This document shows, piece after piece, positions 6,362-58,315 of a DNA stretch of 64,000 nt. Source of the stretch: an uncultured Actinomycetota bacterium. GTDB lineage: Bacteria; Actinomycetota; Acidimicrobiia; Spongiisociales; UBA4744. The notes below the pieces were generated by a model that saw only the letters and a program-made list of their open reading frames with translations, made no database searches and was not told the origin of the DNA. A program made the translations under genes and the position numbers. Numbering within the stretch: the stretch's first letter is position 1; each line of letters begins with the position of its first letter. The stretch spans positions 123,693 to 187,692 of the forward strand of contig CAVQSB010000007.1 in NCBI GenBank assembly GCA_963715305.1. The letters are read 5' to 3'.

Positions 6362-7831
6362 ATGATTTCCGTACTCCTCGGCGCGCTTGGTGGGTTGTTG
6401 GTGTGGGTGGCCTTTCCTCCACTCGGCCTGGGGGCCGTCGTCTTCGTTGCGCCGGTGCCTCTCCTTCTCGGTGTGCGGAGGGCCTCGACCGGCCGTCAGG
6501 CCCTCCTCGTTGGGCTGGCTTTCGGGATTGGTTTCTTCGGACCGCTGCTGGAGTGGATCACCGAGATGGGTGTGATTGCCTGGGCGCCGTTGGTTGTGCT
6601 CGAAGCCTTGTTTCCGGCCGCGTTTGCGTGGATGGTCTTCCGGGTGCGCCATCGACCCGATTGGCAGTGGATGGGTGTTGTCGTCGGCGGTTGGGCCTTG
6701 ACCGAGCTTGCGCGATCGTATCTTCCGGTCGGAGGCTTCACGTGGGGATGGCTCGGGTACGCCGTCAGCGGCTTTGCCGGAGCCAGAGGGGCTGCGCAAT
6801 GGATCGGCGTGTCCGGGTGGACGGTGCTTACCATGCTGGTGGCGGGTGGTCTGGCCCTTTGGGTGGAGACCCGTCGTGGCGGAATCTGGGCGGCGGTTGG
6901 GGCGACCGGAGTGCTGGTGCTGGTGGTCGCGGGTGGAGTTTGGCCGGCCGTAGGCGACGGGCAGACCTTGCAGGTAGCCATCGTGCAAGGCAATAGTCCC
7001 TGCCCGGCGCAGCGGTGTGCCGACGAACGGAAGCTGATCACCCAAAGCCATCTCGATCTCACCCGGACGCTGCCGGCCGGCGAACTGGATCTGGTCGTGT
7101 GGCCGGAGAGTTCGACCGGGTATGCAACGGACCCCATCGATAACCCTGAGATCGCCGGCCAGATCGCAGACGAAGCAATCCGGCTGCAGAGCTACCTGCT
7201 GGTTGGGGGTGACCGCCCCGTCGACGATGAGCATTTTGCCAATGTCAATCTGCTCTTCGACCCCGAGGGACGCATCGTTGGCGAGTACCTCAAGACCCAT
7301 CCGGTGCCGTTCGGCGAGTACATCCCATGGCGTGCAGTGTTTGGATGGACGGAACAGTTCCGGGCTGCACCCAGGGACATGCTGCGCGGGGAAGGGCCCG
7401 TGGTTTTCTCAACCGAATGGGGTTCGCTCGGCTCAGTGATCTCCTTCGAAGGTGCGTTCGCCCGCATCATGCGGGGTCCCGTCCGAGACGGAGCGCAGCT
7501 GCTCGTCGTGGCGACGAATAACTCGAGTTACGGATTGGGACCGGCATCCGATCAGTTCATTGGCATGACCCGCATGCACGCCTCGGCATTGGGCGTCGAT
7601 GTGATCCACGCGGCTCTGACCGGGAGGTCAACGATCATTTCGGACAACGGCACGGTGGGTTCGGTTTCCGGTCTCTTTACGGCGGAGATCCTCACTGGGG
7701 AGGTCAGGGTTCGGGCGTCCGGCATGACCCTGTACACCACGCTCGGGGATTGGCCGTATCTTCTCGCCATCGTCTGGTTCTCCGGCGTTGTGGTTATGGC
7801 AGCGCGGGAGCGGGAGAAGACCCGGGTCTAG
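6362..7831 (+). CDS. lnt: Apolipoprotein N-acyltransferase
   Basis: 489 aa. It has an N-terminal multi-TM region and a CN-hydrolase domain (VVWPES...). The length is typical of Lnt. Confidence 0.85.
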   Translation: MISVLLGALGGLLVWVAFPPLGLGAVVFVAPVPLLLGVRRASTGRQALLVGLAFGIGFFGPLLEWITEMGVIAWAPLVVLEALFPAAFAWMVFRVRHRPDWQWMGVVVGGWALTELARSYLPVGGFTWGWLGYAVSGFAGARGAAQWIGVSGWTVLTMLVAGGLALWVETRRGGIWAAVGATGVLVLVVAGGVWPAVGDGQTLQVAIVQGNSPCPAQRCADERKLITQSHLDLTRTLPAGELDLVVWPESSTGYATDPIDNPEIAGQIADEAIRLQSYLLVGGDRPVDDEHFANVNLLFDPEGRIVGEYLKTHPVPFGEYIPWRAVFGWTEQFRAAPRDMLRGEGPVVFSTEWGSLGSVISFEGAFARIMRGPVRDGAQLLVVATNNSSYGLGPASDQFIGMTRMHASALGVDVIHAALTGRSTIISDNGTVGSVSGLFTAEILTGEVRVRASGMTLYTTLGDWPYLLAIVWFSGVVVMAAREREKTRV

Positions 7832-7850
7832 ACACCGAAAGGCCGCCATA

Positions 7851-7869
7851 CGGGCGGCCCTTCAGCGTC
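7851..7869 (+). terminator. GC hairpin ggccgcc-atacg-ggcggcc after lnt stop
   Basis: A 7-bp perfect stem lies 20 nt after the stop at 7831. Confidence 0.45.
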
Positions 7870-7898
7870 CGGTTCGAGGACTCGTGGCCCTCGCCAGG

Positions 7899-7920
7899 GA
7901 CATACCGGCACCGGTATGTC
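7899..7920. promoter_or_regulatory. Perfect 10-bp inverted repeat GACATACCGG-ca-CCGGTATGTC (candidate operator) ~300 bp upstream of the cytochrome gene
   Basis: The inverted repeat is read directly from the sequence. Confidence 0.3.
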
Positions 7921-8216
7921 TAGCAACCCTGGGTGCTGGGCGCGGGCGAGGTTGGAACGCCTGGTGGTCGCCGTTCCCTCAATGGTCGAAACGATCTGAC
8001 CGATACACCCGTTTGCGGGATTTAGCTCCCGCTTAACCGTGCCTTGGCAGACGGTTAGGTGCCGGTGCGGGAAGCTGAGCCGGGTCGGGGGATCTGCGTT
8101 GCCGGGAAGCGCCGCAATGAGCGTGAGGATGATCATGGCGCGATGGCCCAACCAATGTGGTGAGATAGCCGGAGGCTCTTCCAGCTCGCGCGCGACGCGA
8201 CGCGGCCGGGCCGGCG

Positions 8217-10013
8217 GTGTCGCTGACGCTGCTGCTCGTCCTGGGATCGGCGTTTGTTCTCCTGGCGCCCGGTGCGGAGGCCAAACAGAAGTTCATGTCG
8301 GGTTTCGCGCAGGCCTATCCCGCGGCTGCCGGCACTCCGCTCGACTCCTGCCTTCTCTGTCACACCAACCCGGTCAATCCCGGGGAAAACAACCTCAACA
8401 ACTACGGCAAGGACTGGGAAGACGGCGATTTCGGCGACAAGAACTACCTGGAGCCGGCGCTGGTCAATCGTGATTCCGATCGCGATGGAATACCGAACGG
8501 CCAGGAGATTCAGCAACTATCGCTCCCCGGTGATCCGTCGAGCATCGCACCGCCCACCACGACCACCACGGTGCCCGGTGCGCCTCCCAACGGGCAGGCT
8601 CTCTACGCCGCCCGGTGTTCTGTTTGTCATGGTCCCGGCGGCGGTGACCTGAGCGGAACGACCCGGGCGCGGTCGACCTTCATCACCATCACCCTCAACG
8701 GGCAGGGAGGGATGCCTCCGCAGTCGGGCCTTTCAACCGGAGAGGCTGGTGCCATCTGGGACTACGTGACCGGCACGGTCCCCGCCACGACGACGACTAC
8801 CCGGCCGGGAGCGACAACGGCGCCTGCCGGTGGCGCCACCGTGTGGGCACAACAGTGTGCTGCTTGCCACGGGGCCAACGGTGGGGATGTGGTTCCGACC
8901 AGCCGCAGCAATGCACAACTCGTTTCGATCGTCACCAACGGCGTTCCCGGGATGCGGGGCTTTCCCGAATTGGGAACCGCCCAGATCAGCAATGTGGCCG
9001 GCTACCTTCTCAGCCTGAGCGTCCCGCCGACCACCCAGCCCGGTGCCACGACCACAACAACTTCCCCACGGAGCGGTGCCGCCGTCTATGCAGCCAGTTG
9101 TGCTCTGTGCCACGGAGCGGACGGCGGCAATCTACGCGGCCACACGCTGAACCTGTCCCGGATCGTCTCGGCAACAAGCAACGGCGTTGGGACGATGAGC
9201 GGATACGCGAGCCGCCTCAGCGCCGCCGAGATCAATAATGTTGCTGTCTACGTCGCTTCGGTCGGCGCGAGCGCCGGTGTAACGACCACTACCGCGCCAC
9301 CGGGCAGTCCCCTCTCAGGGTCGATGCTGTATCAGCAGAATTGCTCCGCTTGTCACGGTCTCCACGGTGAAGGCGGCCCGGGGGGAGCGGTCGCCGGTAC
9401 GGCCCTGAGCCGTTCCCAAACGATTGGCGTCATCACCGGAGGAGCGAGCGGTATGCCCGGCTACGCCTCGCAACTATCTGCTGGGCAGATCGCCGCCGTG
9501 GCCGATCACGTCCTGGGAATCGCCGGCAGAGACATCGCGGCCGCCGACAGCGCTCCCGATAGAAGCGTGATACCAACGGAGCTCGTCGAAGGACATGCGC
9601 TGTTTGGTCGGTTCTGTGCGGCCTGTCACGGGGTCAACGGTGAAGGCGGATTGGGCGGTCCGGTTGCAGGTATCAACATCGCCGCCGACGAACTTGGCGA
9701 GATCATTCGAGCCGGGGTGGGCTCGATGCCCGGTTTTGCAGATCGGATGAGTGCTGCCGAGGTCGAAGCCCTGGTGGCGTATTCGCAAGCACTCGCCTCC
9801 GGACGGGAATTCGAGGTGGCCGACACCACCACGACGAGCGGGCAGGCGCCCACCCCACGAGACTCTGGTCCACAAGCCCTGGGGGTTTCCGAGCCCGACC
9901 CGTCGACCAGCCATTCAGCCTGGCCGGTCGTTGTGATTTCCCTGGTAGCCGGGCTCATCGCAACCGGCGCTGCTGTGCTCTGGGCGCGTTTGGGCCGCGA
10001 TCTCATCAACTGA
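8217..10013 (+). CDS. Six-heme c-type cytochrome: signal peptide, N-terminal CxxCH + DxDxDG Ca-binding-like segment, five tandem class-I cytochrome c domains separated by Thr/Pro linkers, C-terminal TM anchor
   Basis: GTG start. CxxCH motifs are CLLCH, CSVCH, CAACH, CALCH, CSACH and CAACH. Each repeat has a downstream GMP(G) Met-ligand region. Linkers are TTTTT/PP-rich. The C-terminus is hydrophobic (WPVVVISLVAGLIATGAAVLW). Confidence 0.8.
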   Translation: MSLTLLLVLGSAFVLLAPGAEAKQKFMSGFAQAYPAAAGTPLDSCLLCHTNPVNPGENNLNNYGKDWEDGDFGDKNYLEPALVNRDSDRDGIPNGQEIQQLSLPGDPSSIAPPTTTTTVPGAPPNGQALYAARCSVCHGPGGGDLSGTTRARSTFITITLNGQGGMPPQSGLSTGEAGAIWDYVTGTVPATTTTTRPGATTAPAGGATVWAQQCAACHGANGGDVVPTSRSNAQLVSIVTNGVPGMRGFPELGTAQISNVAGYLLSLSVPPTTQPGATTTTTSPRSGAAVYAASCALCHGADGGNLRGHTLNLSRIVSATSNGVGTMSGYASRLSAAEINNVAVYVASVGASAGVTTTTAPPGSPLSGSMLYQQNCSACHGLHGEGGPGGAVAGTALSRSQTIGVITGGASGMPGYASQLSAGQIAAVADHVLGIAGRDIAAADSAPDRSVIPTELVEGHALFGRFCAACHGVNGEGGLGGPVAGINIAADELGEIIRAGVGSMPGFADRMSAAEVEALVAYSQALASGREFEVADTTTTSGQAPTPRDSGPQALGVSEPDPSTSHSAWPVVVISLVAGLIATGAAVLWARLGRDLIN

Positions 10014-10065
10014 TCGGCGCACCTCCCGGCCGGGTCAACCTATCAACGCCTCGAGGTGTTGGGGA

Positions 10066-10750
10066 CTACTCCGTCTCGCACTCGGTGAGCGCCGCATCCA
10101 TAATGTCGATAGCCCGACCCAGTTCCTCCATCGTCGTGATCAAGGGGGGAATGAACCGGATCTCGTTGTCATCGGGTCCGCAGCCGATCACGAAAATTTC
10201 GGTTTCGAATGAGTACCGGGCTACGAAGCGTATCGCCTCTGCGTCCAGCTCGCGCGACTCGCGATCCTTGACCAGTTCGATCCCGATCATCAGACCAAGT
10301 CCCCGAACCTCACCATCGGTGCTGTGCGCGACCTGCATTTTGTTGAGCCGCTCAAAGGCGTGCGCCGACAGTAGCGAGCGTGAGGAAGGAGTCCCCCCAT
10401 GGTGTCGATGACGGCACCAACAGCGGCACAGGAGACCGGGTTGCCCCCGAAGGTATTCCGTGGGAGCCGACCAGCCATCGGTCCATGACCTCGGCGGACC
10501 CGCCGAGGATATTCGCTGTGAAGTTCAGAACTGCCGGCTCACTGTCCTTGACTGCGGCGGTGAGGTCATACCCGTGGAGATGCACTGAATCGGGGGGGGG
10601 GGGGGGGGGGGAATCGGATCGGACGCGGACTTCGATGGTGTCGCCTTGTGATACTTCCGCTCGTCGGACACCGCCCTCGACTGCACCACCCCGGACTCGA
10701 TAGCGACGTCGGTTCTGGTGTGATGCCTGTGCGGCAACCTCGACCGACAC
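10066..10750 (-). pseudogene. Remnant of a class-III (PLP) aminotransferase C-terminal ~230 aa, at least two frameshifts, N-terminal ~200 aa missing; contains poly-G tract
   Basis: Fragments in three frames: ...ILGGSAEVMD, ...TFGGNPVSCAAVGAVIDTMGG and ...FERLNKMQVAHSTDGEVRGLGLMIGIEL. Frame changes sit at C6 (10393-10398) and C5 (10444-10448) runs. Sequence 10612-10795 has no aminotransferase similarity. Confidence 0.6.
10592..10611. repeat. 20-nt poly-G homopolymer flanked by direct repeat gaatcgg
   Basis: The sequence is ctgaatc-G20-aatcggatcgg. On the minus strand it would encode PPPPPP. Confidence 0.9.
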
Positions 10751-10795
10751 TGAGGCAGCTACGGGTTGGTCGCCGAACCCATATGAGGTTCGGGC

Positions 10796-41963: not shown

Positions 41964-43439
41964 ATGCTGGAACGTGAATTGAAGCTCAACGCGCCGCCGG
42001 ACTTCCGCTTGCCCGATCTCTCGATCGGTGGACTCGATGTGGTCAACGGATCATGGCGCTACCTCGATGCTGTCTACTACGACACGGCAGATCTGCGTCT
42101 GGCGCGCTGGGGCTGCAGTCTCAGGCACCGCACCGATGAGGGGTGGACGGTCAAGTTGCCCCCGTTGGAAGATCGGGACCTTCAGCAGCGTCCGGAAGTG
42201 AGTTTTGAGGGTCGGTGGGATCGGGTCCCGAGCGCAGCAGAAGCTCTGGTGCGCGTGTTTTCCCGTCGCTCCCCCCTTCAGCAGGTCGCCAGGCTGCGCA
42301 CCGTGCGGAAACCGGTGGTGCTGATCAACGGGTGGGGAAAAGCGGTGGCCGAGATCGTTGTTGACGATGTGTCGACGTATCGCGGTCGGGGTCCGGCCGG
42401 CCGCTTCCAGGAGATCGAGATCGAGCTGGCCGCAGGCGCCGATGAGGGTCTCCTGGGAGGGATTATTTCAGGTCTGCGCGCAGCCGGGGCCGGCTCGATA
42501 ACCCGCGTAAGCAAGCTGGGGCGGACTCTCGGGGCTGCTGCGCTCGAAGATCCCGATGTTGCGGTCAGAGAACCAGGGGTCAATCCAAGCGTCGGCGAAG
42601 TGGTCAAGTCGGCGATTGGGCGCTCGGTTCTGCGATTCATGGTTCACATGCCAGGCGTGCAATTGGGCGAAGATCCGGAGGGGCTCCACCAGGCACGGGT
42701 GGCGACCCGGCGTCTTCGCTCCGACCTTCGTACCTTTGGTCCCCTTCTCGACGAGCATTGGGTGGGGGAGCTCAGAGAAGAGCTGCGATGGATGGGTGGA
42801 GCATTGGGAACCGTACGGGACGTTGACGTGCTCACGCTGCGTCTCCAGGCGACGTCCGACAAGCTTTCCGAGGTTGACCGATACCCGATGCACGTGATGA
42901 TGACCATGCTTCATTCCGAACGTTTGAGGCGGCGCCAAGCACTGTTGGTAGTGACCAGCCAGGATCGGTATCTCGACCTCCTCGATCGTATGGTCGACGC
43001 GGCCGGTTCGCCCCGGCTCTTGCCAACCGTTGACGCGGGGCCACGAGAAGCTTTACTCGACCTCGTCAGGGCACCGTTTGAATGGCTCAAACAGACGATC
43101 ATGGAGTTGCCGGAGCAGCCTGCCGACCCGGATCTGCACCGTATCCGGATCCGGGCGAAACGGGTCCGCTACGCCGCTGAGGCGGTTGCTCCCATGGTGG
43201 GCAAGAAGGCCGTTCGGTTCGCAGGCGCGGCAGCCGCGCTCCAGGACACGCTCGGCAACCTGCAGGATGCCGCGGTCGCCCACTCCTGGCTGAGTCGAGC
43301 GGCGCAGCATCATCCCGCGGTCGCCTTCACTGCAGGTCAGCTGGCCGGACTCGAGCTGACTCGAGCAGATGTAGCCCGCACGAACTGGCAGGGGGAGTGG
43401 CAGAAACTCAATCGGGACAAGCTGCGGAGCTGGATGTGA
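41964..43439 (+). CDS. CYTH (triphosphate tunnel metalloenzyme) + CHAD domain protein
   Basis: N-terminal ERELKL... (ExExK CYTH motif). The C-terminus has CHAD helices with conserved basic Arg/His (HQARVATRRLRSDLR, HRIRIRAKRVRYAAE). Confidence 0.8.
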   Translation: MLERELKLNAPPDFRLPDLSIGGLDVVNGSWRYLDAVYYDTADLRLARWGCSLRHRTDEGWTVKLPPLEDRDLQQRPEVSFEGRWDRVPSAAEALVRVFSRRSPLQQVARLRTVRKPVVLINGWGKAVAEIVVDDVSTYRGRGPAGRFQEIEIELAAGADEGLLGGIISGLRAAGAGSITRVSKLGRTLGAAALEDPDVAVREPGVNPSVGEVVKSAIGRSVLRFMVHMPGVQLGEDPEGLHQARVATRRLRSDLRTFGPLLDEHWVGELREELRWMGGALGTVRDVDVLTLRLQATSDKLSEVDRYPMHVMMTMLHSERLRRRQALLVVTSQDRYLDLLDRMVDAAGSPRLLPTVDAGPREALLDLVRAPFEWLKQTIMELPEQPADPDLHRIRIRAKRVRYAAEAVAPMVGKKAVRFAGAAAALQDTLGNLQDAAVAHSWLSRAAQHHPAVAFTAGQLAGLELTRADVARTNWQGEWQKLNRDKLRSWM

Positions 43440-43855
43440 CCCTCGTTCGGGCAGCCGGTGGGCTGGTCAGCCGGATCGGCAAAGCAGGCGACCTCCAGGT
43501 TCTCCTGGTCCATCGTTCGCGCTACAACGACTGGAGCTTTCCCAAAGGGAAGTTGGATGACGGTGAATCTTTTGAAGACGCCGCGCGGCGAGAGGTCACT
43601 GAAGAGACCGGTCTGATCTGTCGCCTGGACGGAGAGCTGGCTCCCGTCCGTTACCTGGATTCCGCCGGCCGGCCCAAGTTCGTACGGTATTGGCACATGA
43701 TCCCGATCGAAGGGGATATCCGCGATTTTGAATACAACGCCGAGATCGATGACCTGCGGTGGGTCGGGGTGGGAGAGGCTGAGGCATTGCTGAGCTACCA
43801 GCACGACCGTGAGCTACTCAAACCTTGGCGGGATGGCCGCTTCGGGTCCGGTTAG
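43436..43855 (+). CDS. NUDIX hydrolase (GTG start overlapping CHAD stop)
   Basis: Nudix box GKLDDGESFEDAARREVTEETG is present. Confidence 0.75.
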   Translation: MTLVRAAGGLVSRIGKAGDLQVLLVHRSRYNDWSFPKGKLDDGESFEDAARREVTEETGLICRLDGELAPVRYLDSAGRPKFVRYWHMIPIEGDIRDFEYNAEIDDLRWVGVGEAEALLSYQHDRELLKPWRDGRFGSG

Positions 43856-46074
43856 TCCTTGAAGCCACCTGCCGGCGTGGCCACATCGGGCGGTTCAGGA
43901 TCGTAGGGGAGGGCAGCCGTGATCCCGTCCTCGTTGCGGGCAGAGAAGTTGCTCAGCATCCAGGCTTGAGAATCGACCAACTCCTCGTCCGGTCCCGGTT
44001 GCACCCGCGTATAGGTGCCGTCGGCATGGAGTTGTCTGGCCTGAACGTTGTCCATGAGGTGCACAAAGAGGACCGAGTCGCGAATCAGTTTCATCGGCTG
44101 GCCGCTGACCGGGAAGAACACTTCAACCCGACGATTCAGGTTACGGGGCATCAGGTCGGCACTTCCCAGCAGCATCTCCTCATCGCCCCCGTTTCGAAAG
44201 TAGAAGATCCGGGCGTGTTCGAGGAAACGTCCGACGACCGACGTGACCCGGATGGTTTCGCTCAAACCCGAAATTCCCGGTCGCAGTGCGCAGATCCCCC
44301 GCACCTGCAGGTCGATCTTCACTCCCGCTTGCGAAGCGCGGTAGAGGGCTTGAATCATCCTCTTGTCCACCAGGGCGTTCATCTTGAAGGCGAGGTATCC
44401 ATCGCCGTGGTCACGATGTCGTTGGATCTCGCGTTCGATGCGAGCGGCAAATTCCTCTCGCATGGTCGTCGGGGCGACGAGCAGCTTGCGGTAGGTCGTT
44501 TGATGGGCGTAGCCGGTCAGGACGTTGAACAACTCGGATACATCTGCGGCGATGTCCTCGTCGGAGGTGAAGAACCCGAAATCGGTGTAGATACGGGCCG
44601 TGACCGGGTTGTAGTTGCCGGTGGCCATGTGGACGTACCGACGTATGCCGGATGATTCCCGGCGCACGATCAGCAGCAATTTGCAGTGGGTCTTCAGGCC
44701 GACCAGACCGTAGACGACGTGCACCCCCGCTTTTTCGAGCTGGCGCGCCCACCCCAGGTTGTTCTCCTCGTCGAACCGGGCTTTCAGCTCGACCAGCACG
44801 GAAACCTGGCGGCCGTTCTCGCGGGCTTCCAGGAGCGCATCAACAATCGGGGAGTTGGGCCCCACCCGGTACAGGGTTTGTTTGATAGTCAGGACTTTTG
44901 GATCCCGGGCCGCCTGGCGAACCAGCTCCACGACCGGAGCGAAGCTGTCGTAGGGGTGGTACGTGAGCACATCTTGCTGGCGCATGACAGCGAACAGGTC
45001 TTTGGCTCCCCGGAACGCCGGCGGAGTCGCGGGCAGGAACGGCTCGAACTTGAGATCCGGTCGATCGACGTCCGTGAGTTCCATGAGGTCGGCGAGACCG
45101 AGCGGGCCTTCCACGGTGAAGACCTGGTAAGGCGCCAGGCGGAGGTTCTTGGCGAGAACGTTCCTCACCCACTCCGGCATGTCGTGGTCGATCTCGAGTC
45201 GGTCGGCCGATCCGAACCGCCGCATCCCTACTCCCTGCTCCACGGCAACGGATAGGTCGGCTGCTTCGTCTTCTTCGATCTCGACGTCGGCGTCCCGGGT
45301 CAAGCGAAACGGGTAGGCAGCCTGTACCTCGACCCCGGGGAACAACAAGTCGAGGTTGGCCGCGATGACCTCCTCGATCCAGACAAAAGTGTTGGAGGTT
45401 TCGACCAGGCCGAGGCTCTCGTAGGTATCGGCGCTTTCTTCGCTGGGGACTTTGAGCAATCTTGGGAAGGCCGGAGGTACCTTCAGCCGCGCAAAGCGTT
45501 CTCCCCGAACCGGGTCGTTGATCAGAACCGCCAGGTTCATGCTGAGGTTGCCGATATGGGGGAAGGGACGGCCAGGATCGAACGCCAGCGGAGTGAGGGC
45601 CGGGAAGATCTCGCGTTTGTAATGACGGCGCAACAGTTTCTTCTGTTTCCCTTTGAGCTCGTTGTAGGACAGCACGGACAGGTCGGCTTCCTGCAAGGCT
45701 TTGCTCAGGTCGCTCTGCCAGCAGTCCATCTGGGCGGCCAACTGGGGGACCAGTTCGCTGCGGAGGGCGGCGAGTTGCTCGGATGGCGTCATGCCATCGG
45801 GAGGCCCGGCCAGCACGCCCGATTCGAGCTGACGACGCAGGCCGGAAACCCGGATCATGAAGAACTCGTCCAGGTTGTTGGCGAAGATGGCCAGGAACTT
45901 CACCCGTTCCAGGACGGGATGGCGATGATCGAGAGCCTCTTCCAATACGCGACCGTTGAACTGCAACCAGCTGAGTTCACGATTGATGAACAGGGAGGCG
46001 TCCTCCAGGTCCGTCAACGGCTCGATATCGGGGTGGTTTTCAGTAACCATCATGAAAGGGTGGGAGGGCCTCAT
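43852..46074 (-). CDS. ppk: Polyphosphate kinase 1
   Basis: 740 aa. It has a PPK1 N-domain, head, and two PLD-like C domains, with a conserved His context. Confidence 0.9.
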   Translation of the reverse strand: MRPSHPFMMVTENHPDIEPLTDLEDASLFINRELSWLQFNGRVLEEALDHRHPVLERVKFLAIFANNLDEFFMIRVSGLRRQLESGVLAGPPDGMTPSEQLAALRSELVPQLAAQMDCWQSDLSKALQEADLSVLSYNELKGKQKKLLRRHYKREIFPALTPLAFDPGRPFPHIGNLSMNLAVLINDPVRGERFARLKVPPAFPRLLKVPSEESADTYESLGLVETSNTFVWIEEVIAANLDLLFPGVEVQAAYPFRLTRDADVEIEEDEAADLSVAVEQGVGMRRFGSADRLEIDHDMPEWVRNVLAKNLRLAPYQVFTVEGPLGLADLMELTDVDRPDLKFEPFLPATPPAFRGAKDLFAVMRQQDVLTYHPYDSFAPVVELVRQAARDPKVLTIKQTLYRVGPNSPIVDALLEARENGRQVSVLVELKARFDEENNLGWARQLEKAGVHVVYGLVGLKTHCKLLLIVRRESSGIRRYVHMATGNYNPVTARIYTDFGFFTSDEDIAADVSELFNVLTGYAHQTTYRKLLVAPTTMREEFAARIEREIQRHRDHGDGYLAFKMNALVDKRMIQALYRASQAGVKIDLQVRGICALRPGISGLSETIRVTSVVGRFLEHARIFYFRNGGDEEMLLGSADLMPRNLNRRVEVFFPVSGQPMKLIRDSVLFVHLMDNVQARQLHADGTYTRVQPGPDEELVDSQAWMLSNFSARNEDGITAALPYDPEPPDVATPAGGFKD

Positions 46075-46169
46075 CCCAGATATATCGGCAGGCCACTACG
46101 TTCAATATACCGTTTTCTCGGTTTGACCGACCGGTAGCATGACGGGCCGTACGTATCGGAAAGGTCTGC

Positions 46170-46673
46170 GTGAAGACGATCATCCTGTTCCGCCATGGGA
46201 AATCGGACTGGGACGCTCCCTCCGGCTCCGACCATGAACGGCCCCTGGCCGCCCGGGGCCGCACGGCGGCGGACGCCATGGGCAGGTTCCTGTCGGAAAA
46301 AGGGGAGGTCCCTGACCTGGCCATTGCCTCGAGTGCCGTGCGCGCCCGGGACACCCTCGACCGGGCGGTCCGCGCCGGGGAGTGGGCATGCGAGGTCGCA
46401 CAGCGCGATGACCTGTATCTCCCTTCTCCGTACATGCTTCTGGAGGTCCTCCAACAACAGCCCCATGCAGTCTCATCGGTGATGCTGGTCGGGCACCAAC
46501 CGGCATGGTCCGAAACCCTCTCGCTGCTGGTGGGCGGCGGCGATTTTCATTTCCCGACCGCAGCGATGGCCCGGGTCGATGTCGACTCCGAGCGATGGGC
46601 CGACGTGGATTTCGGTGTGGGTCGACTCCGCTGGATGGTGACCCCGAAGGAAGTGGCTAGCGAAGAGCGCTAG
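46170..46673 (+). CDS. Histidine phosphatase superfamily protein (SixA-like)
   Basis: RHG motif (LFRHGKSDW) and a catalytic His in LVGHQPA. Confidence 0.75.
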   Translation: MKTIILFRHGKSDWDAPSGSDHERPLAARGRTAADAMGRFLSEKGEVPDLAIASSAVRARDTLDRAVRAGEWACEVAQRDDLYLPSPYMLLEVLQQQPHAVSSVMLVGHQPAWSETLSLLVGGGDFHFPTAAMARVDVDSERWADVDFGVGRLRWMVTPKEVASEER

Positions 46674-46680
46674 CCACTTC
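46650..46680 (+). terminator. Perfect 13-bp hairpin gaagtggctagcg-aaga-cgctagccacttc overlapping the sixA-like stop codon, between convergent genes
   Basis: The stem is read directly. The stop TAG at 46671-46673 lies inside the 3' arm. Confidence 0.4.
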
Positions 46681-46739
46681 CCTGCTACCACGTGCTTGGT
46701 ATCTCGCCACGTTCTACGAAGACAAAGTACCCGGTTTCT

Positions 46740-48779
46740 CTAGTTGAATCCCACCCAGGCAACGTCGGTGAGGTCGTCAAGGCTGCTGGCCTTCAGGCCA
46801 CTTTCCGACATGGTGTACACCAGATCGCCGATCACCAGCGAGCGATGAATCTGCGCCCTACCGTCGTACCAGTACTCGCCTTCTGCTGTGCCCTTGTTCT
46901 GTCCGGAGTGCGTGACGGACCCGATATCCCTGATGCCCTCCCGATCGGCGACAACACCGATCGCTCCGGCGAACCAATCCTCGCGGCCGTCCTCCCACGA
47001 ACGGGCCTGGACCGGCAACACCGTCAGTCCCGTGGCCGGCCAGTAGAGGAAAGCCCGGTGGTCGTACTCGACCTCCGACCATCCGTCCTCAAAGGTCATC
47101 TTGTGGATTCGCTTCGGGTTGGCCGGGTCGCTCACGTCGAAGACCGCGACCTGCGTGCCCTTGGTCCGTCCCTGCTCGTCGGCATCCTGGCCGATCCCGA
47201 GGAGGAGACCATCGCCCATCGGGTGCAGGTAGGCCGAGTAGCCGAGGATCTTCAACTCGCCGAGCACTTCGGGTGCCTTCGGATTGGAAAGGTCGATGGT
47301 GTAGAGCGGGTCGGTCTGGCGGAAGGTCACGACGTAGGCGGTATCACCCAGGTAGCGGACGCTGTAGATCCGTTCGCCCTTCCCCAACTCGCCGACTTCA
47401 CCGATTTCCTCGAGGACGCCATCATCGGCGCGCAGCACCCTGACGAAACTCTCTGAAACTGTGTCGTCCCTCCATCCCCACCACTCCGGTTCGCTGGTCG
47501 TGGCCACCCGGAGATCGCCGTTGTGTTCTGACATGGCCCATTGATTCAGGAGGAATCCCTCGACCTCGCCTGAAGCCACGTACATCGCAGGCGAATCGCC
47601 GGAGATGTCGAACTGGTGAATCTCGGTGGTAACGCTCCTGAACTCCTGGGGTGCGAACGTGTCCTCGAGAACGCTCCAGTCGTGCCAGCGCTGGGTGGCT
47701 ACGTAGAGCGAATTCTGGGAGGCATAAACGGTCTCACCGTCGGCGAACAGGCCGACCGCGTCGACCGGTTCGAGACCCTCAGAAAGGTCGATGGTCAACA
47801 CGCTCAAGGTTCCCAGACCGGAGAACTCCTCGGGCGCAAAGGTTTGCTCACATTCCAAAAGGAGACCTTCTGTGGTGAAGGTACGGTTGCCGCGCTTCTC
47901 TTCGAGGACGAAGTAGGGCAGCCAGTTGTCGATCGCTGAGTCTTCGATCACCCGACGGTTGGCCCTTTCCGCTTCTCGTTCTGCTCGGAGTCCGGAGCCG
48001 GTCGGGTAGACAAACTCAAGTCCGGTCGGGTACGCATCCACCACGACGCGGGCCGTGTCGCCGACCATGCGGGCACTGAGATAGGACCCGTCGACAAACA
48101 GCGTCTTCACAACTTGCATGTCATCGGGATCGGAGATGTCGATCTCTGATAGAACGGAGATTCCGGAGCCGTAGTAGGGGAGGTCAGGGTTCCAGATTTC
48201 GGGCGCGAGGCGCACGGGAACGTCCCACTGATTGGTACGGGACATGACCAGGAGCTTGTCACCGGCCAGGAACATCTCCTGGGCCCAACCGTCCTCGAGA
48301 CGGAGCGAGCCCACTAACTCGGGCGTTCTTTCGCTCACGTCGACGTAGTAGAGAACGCCCTGGGCGATGGCCAGGATCCGGGTTCCGTCAGACTTGACGA
48401 TGTCGGGTTCGTCGACACCGGCTTCCTGGACGTTGGTGGTCGAGTAATCCACCCCGGGTTGCGAGGTCGAATTCCTTCCTTCGCCCGCCGGGACTGCTGT
48501 TGTGGCCGTATCTTCCATGGCCATCTCGATCCACGGCCCTCCACCCCAGTATCCGCCACCGAGCCCGTACGGGCCGACCATGTCGAGCGCATGTTCCTTC
48601 ACGTATTCGAGCAGCGGGTCGCAGGCATCGAAAGGCTGCAGGGCAAACGCCATGCTGACCGGCGGGCCAATTCTGTGGCTGGTTGTGGTGGTCGGGTCGA
48701 TGCCCGGATTGACCGCCCCGGTGGTGCAGGCTGCGATCAGCAGCGTCATGGTGATGAGTAGTCCGAAGATCTTTCGCAT
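46740..48779 (-). CDS. Secreted beta-propeller-domain lipoprotein (Beta_propel-like)
   Basis: Lipobox LLIAACTTG. The 679-aa protein has repeated blade-like segments. It has no frameshift. Confidence 0.6.
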   Translation of the reverse strand: MRKIFGLLITMTLLIAACTTGAVNPGIDPTTTTSHRIGPPVSMAFALQPFDACDPLLEYVKEHALDMVGPYGLGGGYWGGGPWIEMAMEDTATTAVPAGEGRNSTSQPGVDYSTTNVQEAGVDEPDIVKSDGTRILAIAQGVLYYVDVSERTPELVGSLRLEDGWAQEMFLAGDKLLVMSRTNQWDVPVRLAPEIWNPDLPYYGSGISVLSEIDISDPDDMQVVKTLFVDGSYLSARMVGDTARVVVDAYPTGLEFVYPTGSGLRAEREAERANRRVIEDSAIDNWLPYFVLEEKRGNRTFTTEGLLLECEQTFAPEEFSGLGTLSVLTIDLSEGLEPVDAVGLFADGETVYASQNSLYVATQRWHDWSVLEDTFAPQEFRSVTTEIHQFDISGDSPAMYVASGEVEGFLLNQWAMSEHNGDLRVATTSEPEWWGWRDDTVSESFVRVLRADDGVLEEIGEVGELGKGERIYSVRYLGDTAYVVTFRQTDPLYTIDLSNPKAPEVLGELKILGYSAYLHPMGDGLLLGIGQDADEQGRTKGTQVAVFDVSDPANPKRIHKMTFEDGWSEVEYDHRAFLYWPATGLTVLPVQARSWEDGREDWFAGAIGVVADREGIRDIGSVTHSGQNKGTAEGEYWYDGRAQIHRSLVIGDLVYTMSESGLKASSLDDLTDVAWVGFN

Positions 48780-48860
48780 GGGTGTCTCCCTCGCTGTTGA
48801 TCCTCGGACGCACAGAGTGGTGGCGAAGGTTCCCGGGTCGAGCCGATGACCGAATCAAAT

Positions 48861-48904
48861 GTTCACGTTCCGTTTACCCGGCGGTCGTGTTCGGGTCACC
48901 TTGA
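48861..48904 (+). promoter_or_regulatory. PHO-box-like array of four 11-nt direct repeat units (gttcacgttcc gtttacccggc ggtcgtgttcg ggtcaccttga) ~65-110 nt upstream of pstS
   Basis: GTTCAC / GGTCAC cores recur at 11-nt periodicity, like actinobacterial PhoP/RegX3 boxes. Confidence 0.45.
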
Positions 48905-48969
48905 GCTCATAGCTTGAAAACCGCTGGATTCAGTTCGGCACGATGTAGTCACCAACGAAGGGGCACCGA

Positions 48970-50007
48970 ATGATGAGACGCACCTATCGCCTGGCGGCGA
49001 TCCTCACCGTCTTTGTGCTGCTCGCCGCGGCTTGTGGCGGTGGCGCCGATGAAACAACCACGACCACCGCCGGCGGACAAGATGCAACTACGACCACCTC
49101 TGCGTCTCCTGGAGAAGGAATGCTTCCCGCCGTCGATCCGCTTGATATCACCGGTGACATTGTCACTGCCGGCAGCTCGACCGTCTTCCCGCTGTCGGAA
49201 GCGATGGCGGCCCGATTCGAGGATGAGGGCTACGGCGGGCGGATCACCATCGACAGCATCGGGTCGGGGGCTGGTTTCGAACGATTCTGCGATCAGGGTG
49301 AGACGGACATTGCCAATGCCAGCCGTCCGATCAAGGATTCCGAGATTGAGTCGTGCCGGGCGATCGGGCGCGAGCCGATCGAGTTCCGCGTCGGAACGGA
49401 TGCGTTGGCAGTCACCGTTAGCCCCACCAACACCTTCGCCACCGATATCACCTTTGCAGAATTGGCCGCCCTCTTCTCGACGGCCACAACGTGGCAAGAC
49501 GTCCGGCCGGACTGGCCTGCCAACCCGATTCAACGGTTCATCCCTGGAACCGACTCGGGGACCTTCGACTACTTCGTCGAAGAGGTCTTCGACGAGGACG
49601 AGGCTCCGATGCTGGCGGCCGGCAACACGCAGCTTTCCGAAGACGACAATGTGCTCGTTCAGGGCATCGAAGGTGACGGGTGTGATCCTTCGAACTCCTC
49701 CACGACCTGTGCGATCGGGTTCTTCGGTTTCGCCTACTACTCGGAGAACTCGGACCAGCTCAAGGTCTTGGCGGTGGAAGGAGTGGAACCGAACCAGGCG
49801 AACGTCGACGCCGGTACGTATCCGCTGGCGCGGCCGTTGTTCGTCTACAGCACGTCAGACATCATGAAGGACAAGCCGCAGGTAGCAGACTTCATCAACT
49901 TCTACCTGACCTACGTCAACGAAGAGGTCATCGACGTCGGGTACTTCCCGGCACCCCGTGATGCGCTCGAGGCCGCCGAGCAGGCATGGCTCGACGCCAT
50001 GAGCTGA
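48970..50007 (+). CDS. pstS: Phosphate ABC transporter substrate-binding lipoprotein
   Basis: Lipobox LAAACGG. PstS-family sequence (TGSSTVFPL, GSGAGFERF). Confidence 0.85.
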   Translation: MMRRTYRLAAILTVFVLLAAACGGGADETTTTTAGGQDATTTTSASPGEGMLPAVDPLDITGDIVTAGSSTVFPLSEAMAARFEDEGYGGRITIDSIGSGAGFERFCDQGETDIANASRPIKDSEIESCRAIGREPIEFRVGTDALAVTVSPTNTFATDITFAELAALFSTATTWQDVRPDWPANPIQRFIPGTDSGTFDYFVEEVFDEDEAPMLAAGNTQLSEDDNVLVQGIEGDGCDPSNSSTTCAIGFFGFAYYSENSDQLKVLAVEGVEPNQANVDAGTYPLARPLFVYSTSDIMKDKPQVADFINFYLTYVNEEVIDVGYFPAPRDALEAAEQAWLDAMS

Positions 50008-50078
50008 TCAACTCCATGCGGCGGGGCGGGTGGACCCAATGAGGTGTTCCCGCCCCGCGCGAGAACGCTAGGACCACC

Positions 50079-51050
50079 ATGGCCACCGAAGTACCAACCG
50101 CCGGAGACCTACGGGCGAACAGCCTGAAGAAGCGTCCGCGCCCGGTCGAGATGCTGATCCAAGGGTCGCTGTTCGTGGCAGCCGCCACTTCGGTCGTCAC
50201 CACCATCGGGATCGTTTACGAACTGGGCAAAGAGGCGTTGCTCTTCTTCCAGACCGATGATGTGACACTGGGTGAGTTCTTCTCCTCGACCACTTGGCAG
50301 CCGGCCATCCTCGATTTCGGAATCTGGCCCCTGGTCCTCGCCACCGTGATGGTCAGCGTGATCGCCATGGTGGTGGCGCTGCCGATCGGCCTGGCGACCG
50401 CTATCTACCTCAGCGAGTATGCCTCGGAGCGGTCCCGGGGGATCCTCAAACCCATCCTCGAGGTGCTGGCCGGTGTTCCGACCGTCGTGTACGGGTATTT
50501 TGCGCTGACCTTCATGACCCCGCTCCTCCGTTCGATTCTTGGTGACGGGGTGGTGGAAATCTTCAACGACGCCTCGGCCGGCATCGTGGTTGGGATTCTG
50601 ATCGTTCCTCTCGTCAGCTCGATGGCCGAAGATGCCTTGCACGCTGTGCCCATGTCGCTGCGGGAGGCGGCTCATGCATTGGGGGCAACCAAGCTGGAAA
50701 CGGCACTACGGATCGTGGTCCCGGCTGCTCTGTCGGGTATCGCCGCCGCTTTTGTAGTTGCCATCTCCCGGGCAATTGGGGAGACGATGGTGGTCGCGAT
50801 TGCGGCAGGTGCCGGGCCCAAGAACTTCACCTTCGGACAAGACGGCCTCTTCTCCTACATTCTCAACCCTTTTGTTGCAGGCGAGACCATGACCGGGCAC
50901 ATCGTGCGGATCAGCGGCGGTGACCTCAGCTACGACTCCATCGACTACAACAGCATCTTCGCCATCGGTCTGACGCTGTTCGTGATCACCCTGGTCCTGA
51001 ACATGCTGAGCCGGCGGTTCGTCGCCCGCTTCCGTGAGGTGTACGAATGA
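50079..51050 (+). CDS. pstC: Phosphate ABC transporter permease PstC
   Basis: 323 aa with 6 TM helices and the EAAxALGA motif region. Confidence 0.85.
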   Translation: MATEVPTAGDLRANSLKKRPRPVEMLIQGSLFVAAATSVVTTIGIVYELGKEALLFFQTDDVTLGEFFSSTTWQPAILDFGIWPLVLATVMVSVIAMVVALPIGLATAIYLSEYASERSRGILKPILEVLAGVPTVVYGYFALTFMTPLLRSILGDGVVEIFNDASAGIVVGILIVPLVSSMAEDALHAVPMSLREAAHALGATKLETALRIVVPAALSGIAAAFVVAISRAIGETMVVAIAAGAGPKNFTFGQDGLFSYILNPFVAGETMTGHIVRISGGDLSYDSIDYNSIFAIGLTLFVITLVLNMLSRRFVARFREVYE

Positions 51051-52402
51051 CCCGCCCGGTTCCCGACGCGTATCCTGAGGGGGCGGAACTGAGCCGGGCC
51101 ATCGCGAGGCGGCACCGCCGGGGCACTATCTTCAAATTCAGCTTTGTAGTGGCCCTGATGCTCGCCGTTATTGCGCTACTCACGTTGCTCCTCAAGGTCA
51201 TCGATTCGTCTTTCGGGTATGTTGCACTGCAGAACGAGGTGCAGCCGCGCGAACTGGTTGTCCGCCTCGGCTACGGGGAGGACGTCGACCTCGTTGACCT
51301 GTCGAAATCGGATCTGGTTGCTCTCCTGCAACAGACGGTCACCAACAACGTCGGTCGCCGATTGGAGCGCGATCAGCGGTTCTTCGACGATCGCTTGGTC
51401 TTCGAGTCCGAGGCGAAATACGCCGAGCTGTGCTCCGGCGCCGAGCCGGTCGCGGGCTGTTCGGCGCCCGCGCGGGATCAGGCGGGTGTGTATCAACTCG
51501 TGGTGGAACGAGTCGTGCAGCCGACTGTCCTGAAGACGTGGACCCTTTTCGAATCCGTGCTGTCCGGTCGCGAGGTTCAGGCCGATGCAGCGACAGAATT
51601 CCCTGAGGCTGAGCTGGTATTTCGGTCCTGGCTGAGCGGACGATTCCTGGTCAGCCCGCAAGCACCCGACCCGGCCGTGGCAGGCGTGCGCACGGCCGTG
51701 TTGGGCTCGCTCTGGATCGTCGCGATCACACTTGTCTTCTCGTTCCCGGTCGGGGTGGGGTCGGCCGTCTACCTGGAGGAGTACGCGTCGGACAACCGGA
51801 TGAACCGGCTGATACAGACCAACATCAACAACCTCGCCGGGGTGCCATCGATCATCTACGGAATGCTCGGTCTGGCGATCTTCGTTCGCGCCCTCGAGGG
51901 GTTTTCGAGCGGAGCCTGGTTCGGTGTCGGTGAAGGCACGACCGCCAACGGACGGACCATCGTTGCGGCCGGCCTAACGCTGGGTTTGCTCATTTTGCCC
52001 ATCATCATCATCAATGCTCAGGAGGCCATTCGGGCCGTCCCCCGGTCACTCCGTCAGGCCGGCCTGGCCCTGGGCGCCACCAAGTGGCAGACCACCCGCG
52101 CGCATGTGCTGCCCAATGCCCTGCCGGGGATTCTCACCGGCACGATCCTGGCCGTTGCCCGGGCCCTTGGCGAGACGGCACCGCTGGTGGTGGTGGGGGC
52201 GTCGACCTTCATCACAACCGATCCCAGCGGGCCGTTCTCGAAGTTCACGGCCCTTCCGATTCAGATCTTCCAGTGGACATCCCGCCCCCAGGACGAATTC
52301 CGGAACATTGCGGCGGCTGCCATCCTGGTGTTGCTGGTCATGCTGTTGACCCTCAATGCGACTGCCGTGATACTTCGCAACCGATACGCAAGGAGAATGT
52401 GA
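51047..52402 (+). CDS. pstA: Phosphate ABC transporter permease PstA (long form)
   Basis: 451 aa with the [13 protein letters not shown] motif. Confidence 0.85.
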
Positions 52403-52403
52403 A

Positions 52404-53239
<836 letters not shown>

Positions 53240-53243
<4 letters not shown>

Positions 53244-53914: not shown

Positions 53915-53915
53915 C

Positions 53916-56345: not shown

Positions 56346-56382
56346 CTTCCGGTTCCGGTCGAGAGGGAGCCTGATGGGGCTC

Positions 56383-57057: not shown

Positions 57058-57071
57058 GGTTCACTCCAATC

Positions 57072-58214: not shown

Positions 58215-58315
58215 GATCGTACCTGATCGGCTCTGCCGTCGCGGGCCTTGTTGTCGGCAACAGCATAGATGTCTCGTGTGCCGCGCGAACCGGCACGGAT
58301 GCGTACGCTTCAGGA

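Follow-up and report, generated by a model that had tools for sequence, protein, structure and literature searches.

A membrane-anchored cytochrome c string with predicted flexible linkers and a heme-motif head: a candidate electron relay in uncultured Acidimicrobiia

A 64,000-nucleotide stretch of contig CAVQSB010000007.1 (positions 123,693 to 187,692; the whole stretch is called the window below), derived from an uncultured member of the Acidimicrobiia, encodes a c-type cytochrome that is organized like beads on a string. Its open reading frame (ORF) starts with GTG, occupies positions 8217 to 10013 of the forward strand and specifies 598 amino acids, exactly as an earlier note on this DNA had described. 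The protein is a cytochrome of the tethered kind which stands outside every named family. In the reading that we favor, and to which we assign a probability of about 55%, the string would relay electrons between a Rieske/cytochrome b complex and a partner, acceptor or donor, located beyond the direct reach of this complex. This proposal builds on the exported and membrane-anchored architecture, the conserved ligand residues, the fold of the beads, the flexibility predicted for their linkers, a bead number that varies within the family, and an operon linkage found in relatives.

Architecture of the cytochrome string

Six CxxCH motifs are located at residues 45, 134, 214, 295, 376 and 467, and thus follow each other at spacings of 89, 80, 81, 81 and 91 residues. 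They contain all 12 cysteines of the protein, and from the protein's own composition we calculate a chance expectation of about 0.004 for such motifs. The earlier note had described a six-heme tandem cytochrome. Its beads-on-a-string architecture is borne out, but the first CxxCH motif resides in a distinct head of about 90 amino acids and not in a cytochrome c repeat.

The other five motifs belong to bead domains, here termed D1 to D5 (Table 1). Five stretches of the protein match the Pfam model PF13442 (Cytochrome_CBB3) with an E-value of 2.1e-69 and 230.2 bits (cutoff 27), and PF00034 is matched with 97.5 bits (cutoff 21.3). The repeats are mutually 28–43% identical, and each of them contains an aligned methionine (M166, M246, M327, M413 and M504) that is invariant in 37 homologs. 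In a Foldseek search, the beads of the AlphaFold2 model superimposed on cytochrome c553 of Bacillus pasteurii (1c75) and on cytochromes c6 with target-normalized template modeling scores of 0.72–0.81 and root-mean-square deviations of 1.7–2.8 Å, while multi-domain matches were obtained with TsdBA and with mycobacterial and corynebacterial QcrC. The query of this search was the full-length model, hence all E-values exceed 0.001. Domain search and structural comparison therefore uphold the five class I cytochrome c domains of the earlier note, together with the Met-ligand region that it had assigned to each repeat.

A profile of the beads, compared with the sequences of the PDB, retrieved cytochrome c6 (4e-11), the c domain of CcoP (6e-11) and actinobacterial QcrC (1e-9). 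It also matched three entries that were confirmed as domains I (8qj6; 2.3e-8), II (8qjg; 2.1e-7) and III (8qk0; 1.9e-5) of PgcA from Geobacter sulfurreducens. In this profile search the beads are thus closer to c6, CcoP and QcrC than to the PgcA domains; in addition, D3 gave a direct, weak sequence match to PgcA domain I (8qj6). Two bead subtypes can be distinguished. D1 to D3 have a short loop after CxxCHG, whereas D4 and D5 carry a five-residue insertion (CHGxxGEGGxGG) and align with QcrC. The D3 type is the one that is duplicated in seven-heme relatives, where the extra bead of homologs P0008 and P0023 aligns after D3.

The Thr/Pro linkers noticed earlier turned out to be real and conserved. 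T114–T118 of linker 0 are invariant in nine close homologs, and T115–T118 are at least 90% conserved in the set of 37. Likewise, T192, T193, T195 and P197 of linker 1 are invariant in the latter set. The full-length AlphaFold2 model, which was based on the 37-sequence alignment, has a predicted template modeling score (pTM) of 0.29 and consists of six well-predicted blocks. Its six segments with a predicted local distance difference test (pLDDT) value below 50 are exactly the linkers, including the membrane-proximal stalk, as compared with predicted values of 70–92 for the folded domains. Fully extended, the protein would measure about 40–50 nm according to our arithmetic (88 linker residues at about 0.34 nm per residue and six domains of about 2.5 nm).

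At the N-terminal end, a hydrophobic peak is conserved throughout the family, and residues P18, G19, A22 and K23 are invariant among close homologs. Signal-peptide cleavage is predicted from the sequence to occur between A22 and K23 (PGAEA-KQK). At the opposite end, the transmembrane anchor postulated in the earlier note was found again as a hydrophobic segment (W569–W589; hydropathy of 2.39 over 19 residues) within a helix that AlphaFold2 places at residues 569–597, and nearly all family members have a comparable C-terminal peak. Among the 37 homologs, R591 never varies, while R594 is conserved in at least 90%. The 21-residue hydrophobic stretch followed by these two arginines is consistent with an N-out/C-in anchor. 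Lipoprotein status, and with it a functional link to the adjacent lnt gene, was considered and rejected because no cysteine is present outside the CxxCH motifs.

A search of 5.8 billion proteins revealed that the family comprises at least 165 cluster representatives. Matches with a named source are nearly all from metagenome-assembled genomes (MAGs) of Acidimicrobiia or Actinomycetota, and their annotations are limited to 'c-type cytochrome' or 'mono/diheme cytochrome c family protein'. A literature search on this family in Acidimicrobiia gave nothing relevant. Nearly all members share a signal peptide, the head, three to six beads about 80 residues apart, Thr-run linkers and the C-terminal anchor. 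The 95 apparently complete members contain four (21 proteins), five (21), six (35) or seven (18) hemes as judged by their motifs, and in 88 of them every cysteine lies inside a CxxCH motif. Bead number therefore varies across the family while head and anchor are constant. The rarity of such proteins in Actinobacteria had been overstated in the earlier note, given the number of representatives, nearly all named ones being from Acidimicrobiia; the contrast to the diheme QcrC of other Actinomycetota holds.

Two further observations concern individual family members. In the operon-linked subfamily P0098–P0117, about 250 residues without a Pfam match are inserted between the head and the first bead (e.g., residues ~115–290 of P0101), and this insert may represent an additional uncharacterized domain. 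A full-length six-heme homolog with 61% identity is encoded in a MAG labeled 'uncultured Gammaproteobacteria' (locus L006, CAXMQV010000127.1). Since the distribution is otherwise exclusively acidimicrobial, this label probably reflects a binning or labeling error and not horizontal transfer.

A head with a heme motif and an EF-hand-type loop

The head is predicted with high confidence when modeled alone (pLDDT 90, pTM 0.82). The N-terminal CLLCH and the calcium-binding-like loop reported in the earlier note are both present, and their key residues belong to the set of positions that are invariant in 101 distinct family sequences (F30, C45, C48, H49, N61, D86, D88, D90, G91, N94, E97, I98, P104 and G105). 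The loop, D86-S-D-R-D-G-I-P-N-G-Q-E97, has the canonical EF-hand-type spacing D-x-D-x-D-G-x-x-N-x-x-E and is flanked in the AlphaFold2 model by helices 80–83 and 94–99. With aspartates at positions 1, 3 and 5, glycine at position 6, glutamate at position 12 and the flanking helices, it qualifies on sequence and model as a putative EF-hand-type Ca2+-binding loop.

No methionine, second histidine, lysine, cysteine or tyrosine is invariant in the head among the 101 sequences, which suggests that the distal ligand of the head heme is absent or variable. The head thus probably carries a covalent c-heme for which neither a distal Met nor a distal His is conserved. As the head always comes after a signal peptide, ligation of its heme by the mature N-terminal amino group, as in cytochrome f, was also considered. 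It was rejected as a general mechanism on the grounds that internal tandem copies of the head exist, seven of them in protein P0121.

Comparison of the head model with the PDB by Foldseek yielded no match at E ≤ 10. A head profile retrieved nothing significant from the PDB sequences, where the weak matches (E ≥ 0.02) were mostly calmodulin-type EF-hand loops. The nearest curated model is NF041762 of NCBIfam ('GEGP motif-containing diheme protein'), whose repeat unit at about model positions 69–120 is matched by the head. The head alone (55.2 bits) and the whole protein (47.6 bits) do not reach the cutoff of 300, in contrast to the seven-copy protein P0121 with 434 bits; the window protein has one unit only, as opposed to two heme units in the model. 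A literature search for NF041762 and the 'GEGP motif' gave nothing relevant, and no function is described for this family.

Far more homologs of the head exist than of the entire protein. Among 1.84 billion cluster representatives, the head profile found 2,889 at E ≤ 1e-3 and 1,206 at E ≤ 1e-10. The motif is present in 122 of the top 140 matches. Of these 122 proteins, 97.5% have the CxxCH motif among their first 100 residues, and 107 have no other such motif. Partners of the head include cytochrome c beads, SdrD-B/SpaA stalks, SLH domains with MtrC-like multihemes, TIG repeats, and cohesin/dockerin modules with c7-type multihemes; the head is also found in an archaeal PGF-CTERM-anchored protein, in PASTA-containing proteins, and in tandem arrays of up to seven copies (P0121, which matches Pfam EF-hand_1 at 6e-9). 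Usually, it is the N-terminal module of secreted or surface proteins of bacteria and archaea and follows almost always directly after the signal peptide.

Some of these contexts are of interest in their own right. The head is often found on non-redox stalk proteins (TIG, SdrD-B, PASTA, PGF-CTERM), which would place a lone heme at the tip of a non-conductive surface protein. In 3 of 25 long metagenome loci, ORFs with ten CxxCH motifs (about 300–325 amino acids, MtrA/DmsE-like in size) are located divergently upstream of head-domain genes, which hints at a connection to extracellular electron transfer (EET) for some head-domain proteins.

A proposed electron relay and competing readings

The link between the string and quinol oxidation stems from divergent homologs. 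In two independent samples (loci L084 and L086), the homolog is the fourth cistron of an operon encoding a Rieske protein (148 amino acids), cytochrome b (228 amino acids) and a fusion of subunit IV with cytochrome c (440 amino acids), and its start overlaps the stop of the third gene. In L085, such an operon lies upstream of the homolog at a distance of about 0.9 kb; the subunit IV fusion encoded there has about four c domains, and ccmF/ccmH are nearby. The homolog in L083 adjoins ccmE/C/B/A; genes for NapC/NirT and a multiheme cytochrome are nearby, and a quinol-oxidizing module is absent. A headless tandem-c relative (L089) is the fourth gene after genes for an Fe-S protein, NrfD and a cytochrome c. 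The operon-linked proteins are homologous to the window protein throughout, with 44% identity over signal peptide and head, about 40% over the beads, and the same Thr-run linkers. The unknown partner invoked by the earlier note can thus be narrowed down, as divergent homologs are co-operonic with Rieske/cytochrome b genes or lie beside ccm genes. Linkage to Rieske, cytochrome b or ccm genes was absent from 80 sampled metagenome loci with head-domain genes, which argues that it is the cytochrome string, rather than its head, that is tied to complex III.

The complex III encoded at these Acidimicrobiia loci is of the Bacillus/b6 type, with a small Rieske protein, a split cytochrome b of about 228 amino acids, and a subunit IV that is fused to one to four c domains. 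The same loci carry genes of the System I pathway of cytochrome c maturation (ccmABCE, ccmFH). A classical qcrC-qcrA-qcrB arrangement was observed in other Actinomycetota, including one 'Acidimicrobiaceae' MAG (L022).

In the mechanism that we propose, a single C-terminal helix would tether this Sec-exported c-type cytochrome to the outside of the cytoplasmic membrane. Proceeding outward from the membrane, the 34-residue disordered stalk would be followed by the two QcrC-like long-loop beads, the three short-loop beads and the distal head. The array would consist of five class I His/Met beads of about 70 residues on linkers of 8–13 residues, and of the head of about 90 residues with a sixth c-heme beside the EF-hand-type Ca2+ loop. 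The model predicts no packing of the beads into a fixed heme wire, so that electrons would be handed from bead to bead in transient collisions (tethered diffusion). The linkers would bring neighboring beads within tunneling distance, and the stalk may let the array sweep the membrane surface or reach outward. The membrane-proximal end would exchange electrons with the quinol-oxidizing Rieske/cytochrome b complex, which in the relatives carries its own fused c domain. At the far end, the partner might be a terminal oxidase elsewhere on the membrane or, via the head, some site within the wall or on the cell surface. We infer that heme occupies the motifs, and likewise infer which way electrons flow and what the end partner may be; the Thr runs may be glycosylated.

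The closest working principle is that of PgcA (GSU1761), the founding 'heme-tethered redox string' (PMC10570954, PMC11520253), and by analogy tethered diffusion may apply to the window protein as well. For PgcA, it was demonstrated by small-angle X-ray scattering (Dmax ~180 Å), nuclear magnetic resonance spectroscopy and sequential oxidation of the domains (PMC11520253, PMC10570954). Both proteins contain several small monoheme c-type domains on conserved Pro/Thr low-complexity linkers, a packed heme chain being absent from PgcA and predicted to be absent from the window protein, and their beads are distant homologs within the same class I (Cytochrome_CBB3-like) superfamily. However, PgcA, a lipoprotein of a diderm bacterium, carries an N-terminal secretion domain and leaves the cell, whereas the window protein lacks a lipobox cysteine and a secretion domain and has a C-terminal transmembrane helix in a presumed monoderm. 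Three beads (two His/Met, one His/His) in PgcA contrast with five predicted His/Met beads plus a non-homologous head, and (PT)n linkers with Thr runs (TTTTT, with PG). Finally, relatives of the window protein are linked to complex III and not to outer-membrane conduits.

Membrane-tethered monoheme shuttles that connect bc-type complexes to terminal oxidases are represented by cytochrome cy of Rhodobacter, c552 of Paracoccus, and CccA/CccB of Bacillus. They share with the window protein a class I His/Met cytochrome domain, a membrane anchor and a flexible linker, and a CcoP-cytochrome cy fusion (6xkx) was among the best PDB matches of the bead profile (5.5e-11). The shuttles differ in having one heme domain and an N-terminal anchor or lipid, as opposed to five beads, a head and a C-terminal anchor. 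The model of CcoP, subunit III of cbb3 oxidase (TIGR00782), gave 96.4 bits, below its cutoff of 179.95.

Several points weigh against the relay. A plain shuttle from complex III to an oxidase fails to explain three to six beads and a conserved head. The 47 long ORFs of the window that were scanned with Pfam include no respiratory enzyme gene; the earlier remark that no oxidoreductase gene is adjacent is supported for these ORFs across the 64 kb. Within the clade of the window the gene stands alone, flanked by lnt and pur genes, with the order lnt-cytochrome found in seven of nine species representatives. Five of nine divergent contexts are likewise devoid of a respiratory neighbor, among them L083 with ccm genes only. 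The link to complex III is thus a putative one, transferred from relatives of 35–40% identity. Independence and flexibility of the beads are consistent with AlphaFold confidence values, on which they rest, and heme attachment as well as His/Met ligation are predicted from sequence motifs. The frame break at the 5' end of the ORF (see below), if real, may impair export.

Further scans of the 64-kb window revealed no heme-copper oxidase gene among the Pfam-scanned ORFs, no other ORF with multiple CxxCH motifs and no CcsA-type Trp-rich motif. ORFs were selected by length and Pfam matches; calling based on GC content at third codon positions discriminated poorly at 63% GC.

A possible but distinctly less probable alternative is that the string constitutes a wall-spanning EET conduit of a monoderm cell. 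The helix would anchor it, Thr-rich and possibly O-glycosylated linkers would extend through the peptidoglycan, and the head would be the terminal site, which donates electrons to the outside (metal oxides, humics, oxygen species) or accepts them (e.g., from Fe(II)). The extended length calculated above is comparable to that of a Gram-positive wall, and three to six beads between a constant head and a constant anchor resemble a stalk of adjustable length. This alternative also profits from the N-terminal position of the head on other surface-type proteins (SLH plus MtrC-like, cohesin/dockerin plus c7-type, SdrD-B/SpaA, TIG, PGF-CTERM) and from the divergently adjacent 10-heme ORFs. PgcA provides an extracellular precedent (PMC11520253), and wall cytochromes of Gram-positive bacteria are known in Thermincola (PMC6703420, PMC7911101). 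These OcwA-type proteins are likewise c-type cytochromes that a monoderm places beyond its cytoplasmic membrane, where they may bridge the wall, but each is a compact bis-His multiheme whose hemes are closely packed and which lacks a bead-linker organization. Pfam and PDB sequence searches detected no relationship of the window protein to Gram-positive wall multihemes.

What speaks against such a conduit are the beads themselves, all of which are predicted to be of the His/Met class I type that usually serves oxidases or bc complexes, while known EET conduits use bis-His multihemes. Moreover, the gene occupies a housekeeping locus that is conserved across species; EET genes are more often found in accessory cytochrome clusters. 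No multiheme or porin-type partner is encoded near the gene in the clade of the window, and the MAGs concerned show no experimental or habitat sign of metal respiration. The head does not need to be wired by a chain, since 107 of 122 head proteins have no other heme motif.

Given the unusual features of the head, it is tempting to speculate further, though we regard the following idea as rather unlikely. The head may be a c-heme/Ca2+ module of a new class whose distal site is open or unusual. Wired to complex III by the string, it would form an unrecognized cell-surface terminal reductase or oxidase, and hence an EET route, in monoderm Actinomycetota. The same head would then provide surface proteins of bacteria and archaea, thousands of them, with a general tip for redox reactions or ligand binding.

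It is improbable that the string is the dedicated electron acceptor or donor of an extracytoplasmic enzyme encoded elsewhere (thiosulfate or sulfite dehydrogenase, pyrroloquinoline quinone-dependent dehydrogenase, nitrite reductase), in the manner of TsdB, SorU or cytochrome cL. Class I beads commonly serve such enzymes. The TsdBA tetraheme fusion was the top multi-domain match in Foldseek, with an E-value of 2.9e-3 that is above 0.001, and matches to the NCBIfam models of SorU, SorB, MoxG and PedF were recorded, but all of their scores are far below the cutoffs. In about 20 loci examined, no gene for such an enzyme is adjacent, and the sole recurrent linkage is that to quinol-oxidizing modules and ccm genes.

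An expanded QcrC, i.e., a stoichiometric cytochrome c subunit of a bcc-aa3-type supercomplex, is highly improbable despite an evident likeness. QcrC (PDB 7rh5, 7q21, 6hwh; NF050122) also combines tandem class I c domains with a C-terminal transmembrane anchor on the outer face of the membrane. Its two c domains and anchor are mirrored by D4, D5 and the C-terminal helix, with D4-D5 aligning to both QcrC domains. The best single-sequence PDB matches were 7q21_C (4.3e-6) and 7rh5_O (9.1e-6, over residues 367–527), and D4-D5 share 28–32% identity with canonical QcrC genes (Cutibacterium and others). By contrast, the protein scores 78.5 bits with NF050122 (bc1_QcrC_actin), whose cutoff is 200. QcrC forms a rigid diheme unit, and its gene belongs to a qcrCAB operon, directly upstream of the Rieske and cytochrome b genes, whereas the window protein has six CxxCH motifs, four extra modules and linkers predicted to be flexible, and its gene lies outside such an operon between lnt and pur neighbors. 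In addition, the complex of the co-operonic relatives already possesses a c domain fused to subunit IV.

The 5' end of the gene, its surroundings and wider meaning

Close homologs start about 27 residues upstream of the GTG codon with the sequence MARW...EIAGGSSSSRATRR. Translation of all frames revealed a corresponding peptide, MARWPNQCGEIAGGSSSSRATRR, which is encoded from an ATG at position 8135 in a frame that differs from that of the remaining ORF. A DNA alignment with L003, a relative with 90% identity, located one extra base at about position 8203, in a G/C-rich run. As the homolog-like N terminus is found upstream in another frame, GTG 8217 would simply be the first start codon past the frame break. 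The sequence comparison suggests that the native gene probably starts at ATG 8135 and spans positions 8135–10013; the N terminus of close homologs, MARW...EIAGGSSSSRATRRAGLAGSLTLLL, serves as reference for this correction.

The break is one of many. In comparison with syntenic orthologs in L001, at least eight frame breaks occur in the first 18 kb of the window and affect housekeeping genes. They include switches in the genes for peptidase M3 (~480), an amidohydrolase (~3915) and an inositol-phosphatase/nitroreductase (~5435), and in purL (~14790 and ~15010), purQ (~16000) and purC (~17000). Judging from this accumulation, the frameshift near 8203 most likely arose as an indel during assembly. 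The relatives closest to the window are 'MFD' MAGs, for which soils and sediments in Denmark were sequenced with Nanopore long reads (PMC12313526). The restored protein would probably have about 625 amino acids and an ordinary Sec signal peptide ending at PGAEA-KQK. Thus, the signal peptide recognized earlier (LLAPGAEA-KQK) is correct with respect to its conserved site, while the N terminus as called is truncated by the probable frameshift. Tat export was rejected because the RR of the restored n-region is not conserved in homologs (PRRV, SWRG, WWRG). c-Type cytochromes are Sec substrates.

That the gene is a decaying pseudogene with a real frameshift and no present function in this organism is extremely improbable: the break does part the native start from the remaining ORF, but the other 598 codons are intact with every ligand residue kept at 90% identity to L003, comparable breaks strike essential genes (purL twice, purC, purQ) within the same 18 kb and point to assembly error, and the closest relatives are Nanopore-only soil MAGs (PMC12313526). 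Protein predictions from this indel-prone contig are often truncated or split. A sensor kinase gene at 54616–57129, for example, is divided into HAMP/HisKA and HATPase_c ORFs.

Table 1. Features of the cytochrome gene, of its surroundings and of homologous loci. Coordinates refer to the window unless a locus is named.
Feature	Residues	Coordinates	Strand	Basis and remarks
Probable native 5' end, MARWPNQCGEIAGGSSSSRATRR; positively charged n-region of signal peptide		8135..8203	+	Homolog starts MARW...RATRRAGLAGSLTLLL, frame translations, DNA alignment to L003
Signal-peptide hydrophobic core and c-region, ending PGAEA-KQK (A-x-A)	1–22 as called	8217..8282	+	Conserved site, family-wide N-terminal hydrophobic peak
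Head domain	23–112	8283..8552	+	Conservation, AlphaFold2; CLLCH 45–49 (8349–8363), EF-hand-type loop D86–E97 (8472–8507)
Linker 0, PTTTTTVPG	113–121	8553..8579	+	pLDDT <50, conserved Thr
Bead D1	122–189	8580..8783	+	C134-x-x-C137-H138, M166; PF13442, repeat alignment, invariant residues, AlphaFold2 block
Linker 1, ATTTTTRPGATT	190–201	8784..8819	+	pLDDT <50
Bead D2	202–269	8820..9023	+	C214-x-x-C217-H218, M246; PF13442, repeat alignment, AlphaFold2 block
Linker 2, PPTTQPGATTTT	270–281	9024..9059	+	pLDDT <50; T272, T273, P275 ≥90% conserved
Bead D3	282–354	9060..9278	+	C295-x-x-C298-H299, M327; PF13442, repeat alignment, AlphaFold2 block
Linker 3, VTTTTAPP	355–362	9279..9302	+	pLDDT <50; T357–T359 ≥90% conserved
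Bead D4, long-loop (CHGLHGEGGPGG), QcrC-like	363–437	9303..9527	+	C376-x-x-C379-H380, M413; PF13442, QcrC alignment, AlphaFold2 block
Linker 4, not Thr-rich	438–450	9528..9566	+	pLDDT <50; variable among homologs
Bead D5, long-loop	451–533	9567..9815	+	C467-x-x-C470-H471, M504; best-scoring Pfam stretch 458–522, AlphaFold2 block
Membrane-proximal stalk, low complexity, T/P/S/D-rich	534–567	9816..9917	+	Longest segment with pLDDT <50; variable among homologs
C-terminal transmembrane helix, short basic cytoplasmic tail (R591, R594), stop	W569–W589 (helix)	9921..10013	+	Hydropathy, AlphaFold2 helix 569–597
Gene remnants or further assembly damage between cytochrome gene and purM		10066–10338 and 10502–10765	-	
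b6-type complex III / ccm loci		L084 5548–8004; L086 5545–8004; L085 3758–7088; L083 9947–12521		
10-heme ORFs beside head-domain genes		L095 8565–9533; L103 3273–4247; L114 4442–5353	divergent	10 CxxCH each

The Pfam-scanned ORFs of the window are either unmatched or housekeeping genes. They include lnt upstream of the cytochrome gene, purM/F/L/Q/S/C/D/B/A, ATP-binding cassette transporters for zinc, peptides, phosphate and amino acids, and genes for polyphosphate kinase, CHAD/CYTH, PhoU, LCP and DXS. A scan of positions 7700–10500 for promoters and terminators returned no promoter-like site and one terminator-like site inside the gene, which corresponds to chance level. Two pieces of genes lie between the cytochrome gene and purM: one encodes 90 amino acids from the C terminus of a class III aminotransferase, and the other is a remnant that resembles the hypothetical gene (346 amino acids) at this position in L001; the gap measures 0.8 kb in the window and 1.5–3 kb in relatives. 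Positions 41964–58544 harbor a phosphate/polyphosphate cluster (CYTH+CHAD, polyphosphate kinase 1, a beta-propeller protein (PF09826), PstS-PstC-PstA-PstB, PhoU, sensor kinase, and a Na/Pi cotransporter). Outside the window, a heliorhodopsin gene was detected at positions 10577–11335 of L085, about 700 bp downstream of homolog P0082 and after two fragments of F420H2-dependent quinone reductase genes.

Our analysis bears on two protein families. That of the head, with 2,889 cluster representatives, is a well-defined target for further work, as it combines a confidently predicted fold with the lack of a solved structure and of an obvious distal ligand. As to the string, we know of no comparable beads-on-a-string design other than that of PgcA, and tethered-diffusion cytochromes ("hemes on a string") were recognized as a class only in 2023–2024, on the basis of this one Geobacter protein. 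The family described here would carry the principle of tethered diffusion into a Gram-positive phylum. It adds to this principle a membrane anchor, beads of the high-potential His/Met type and, in relatives, a direct operon link to a Rieske/cytochrome b complex. This suggests that tethered strings may be a general respiratory design, beyond metal-oxide reduction. The cytochrome string is also a candidate for how the abundant uncultured Acidimicrobiia of soils and marine habitats link complex III to terminal acceptors.

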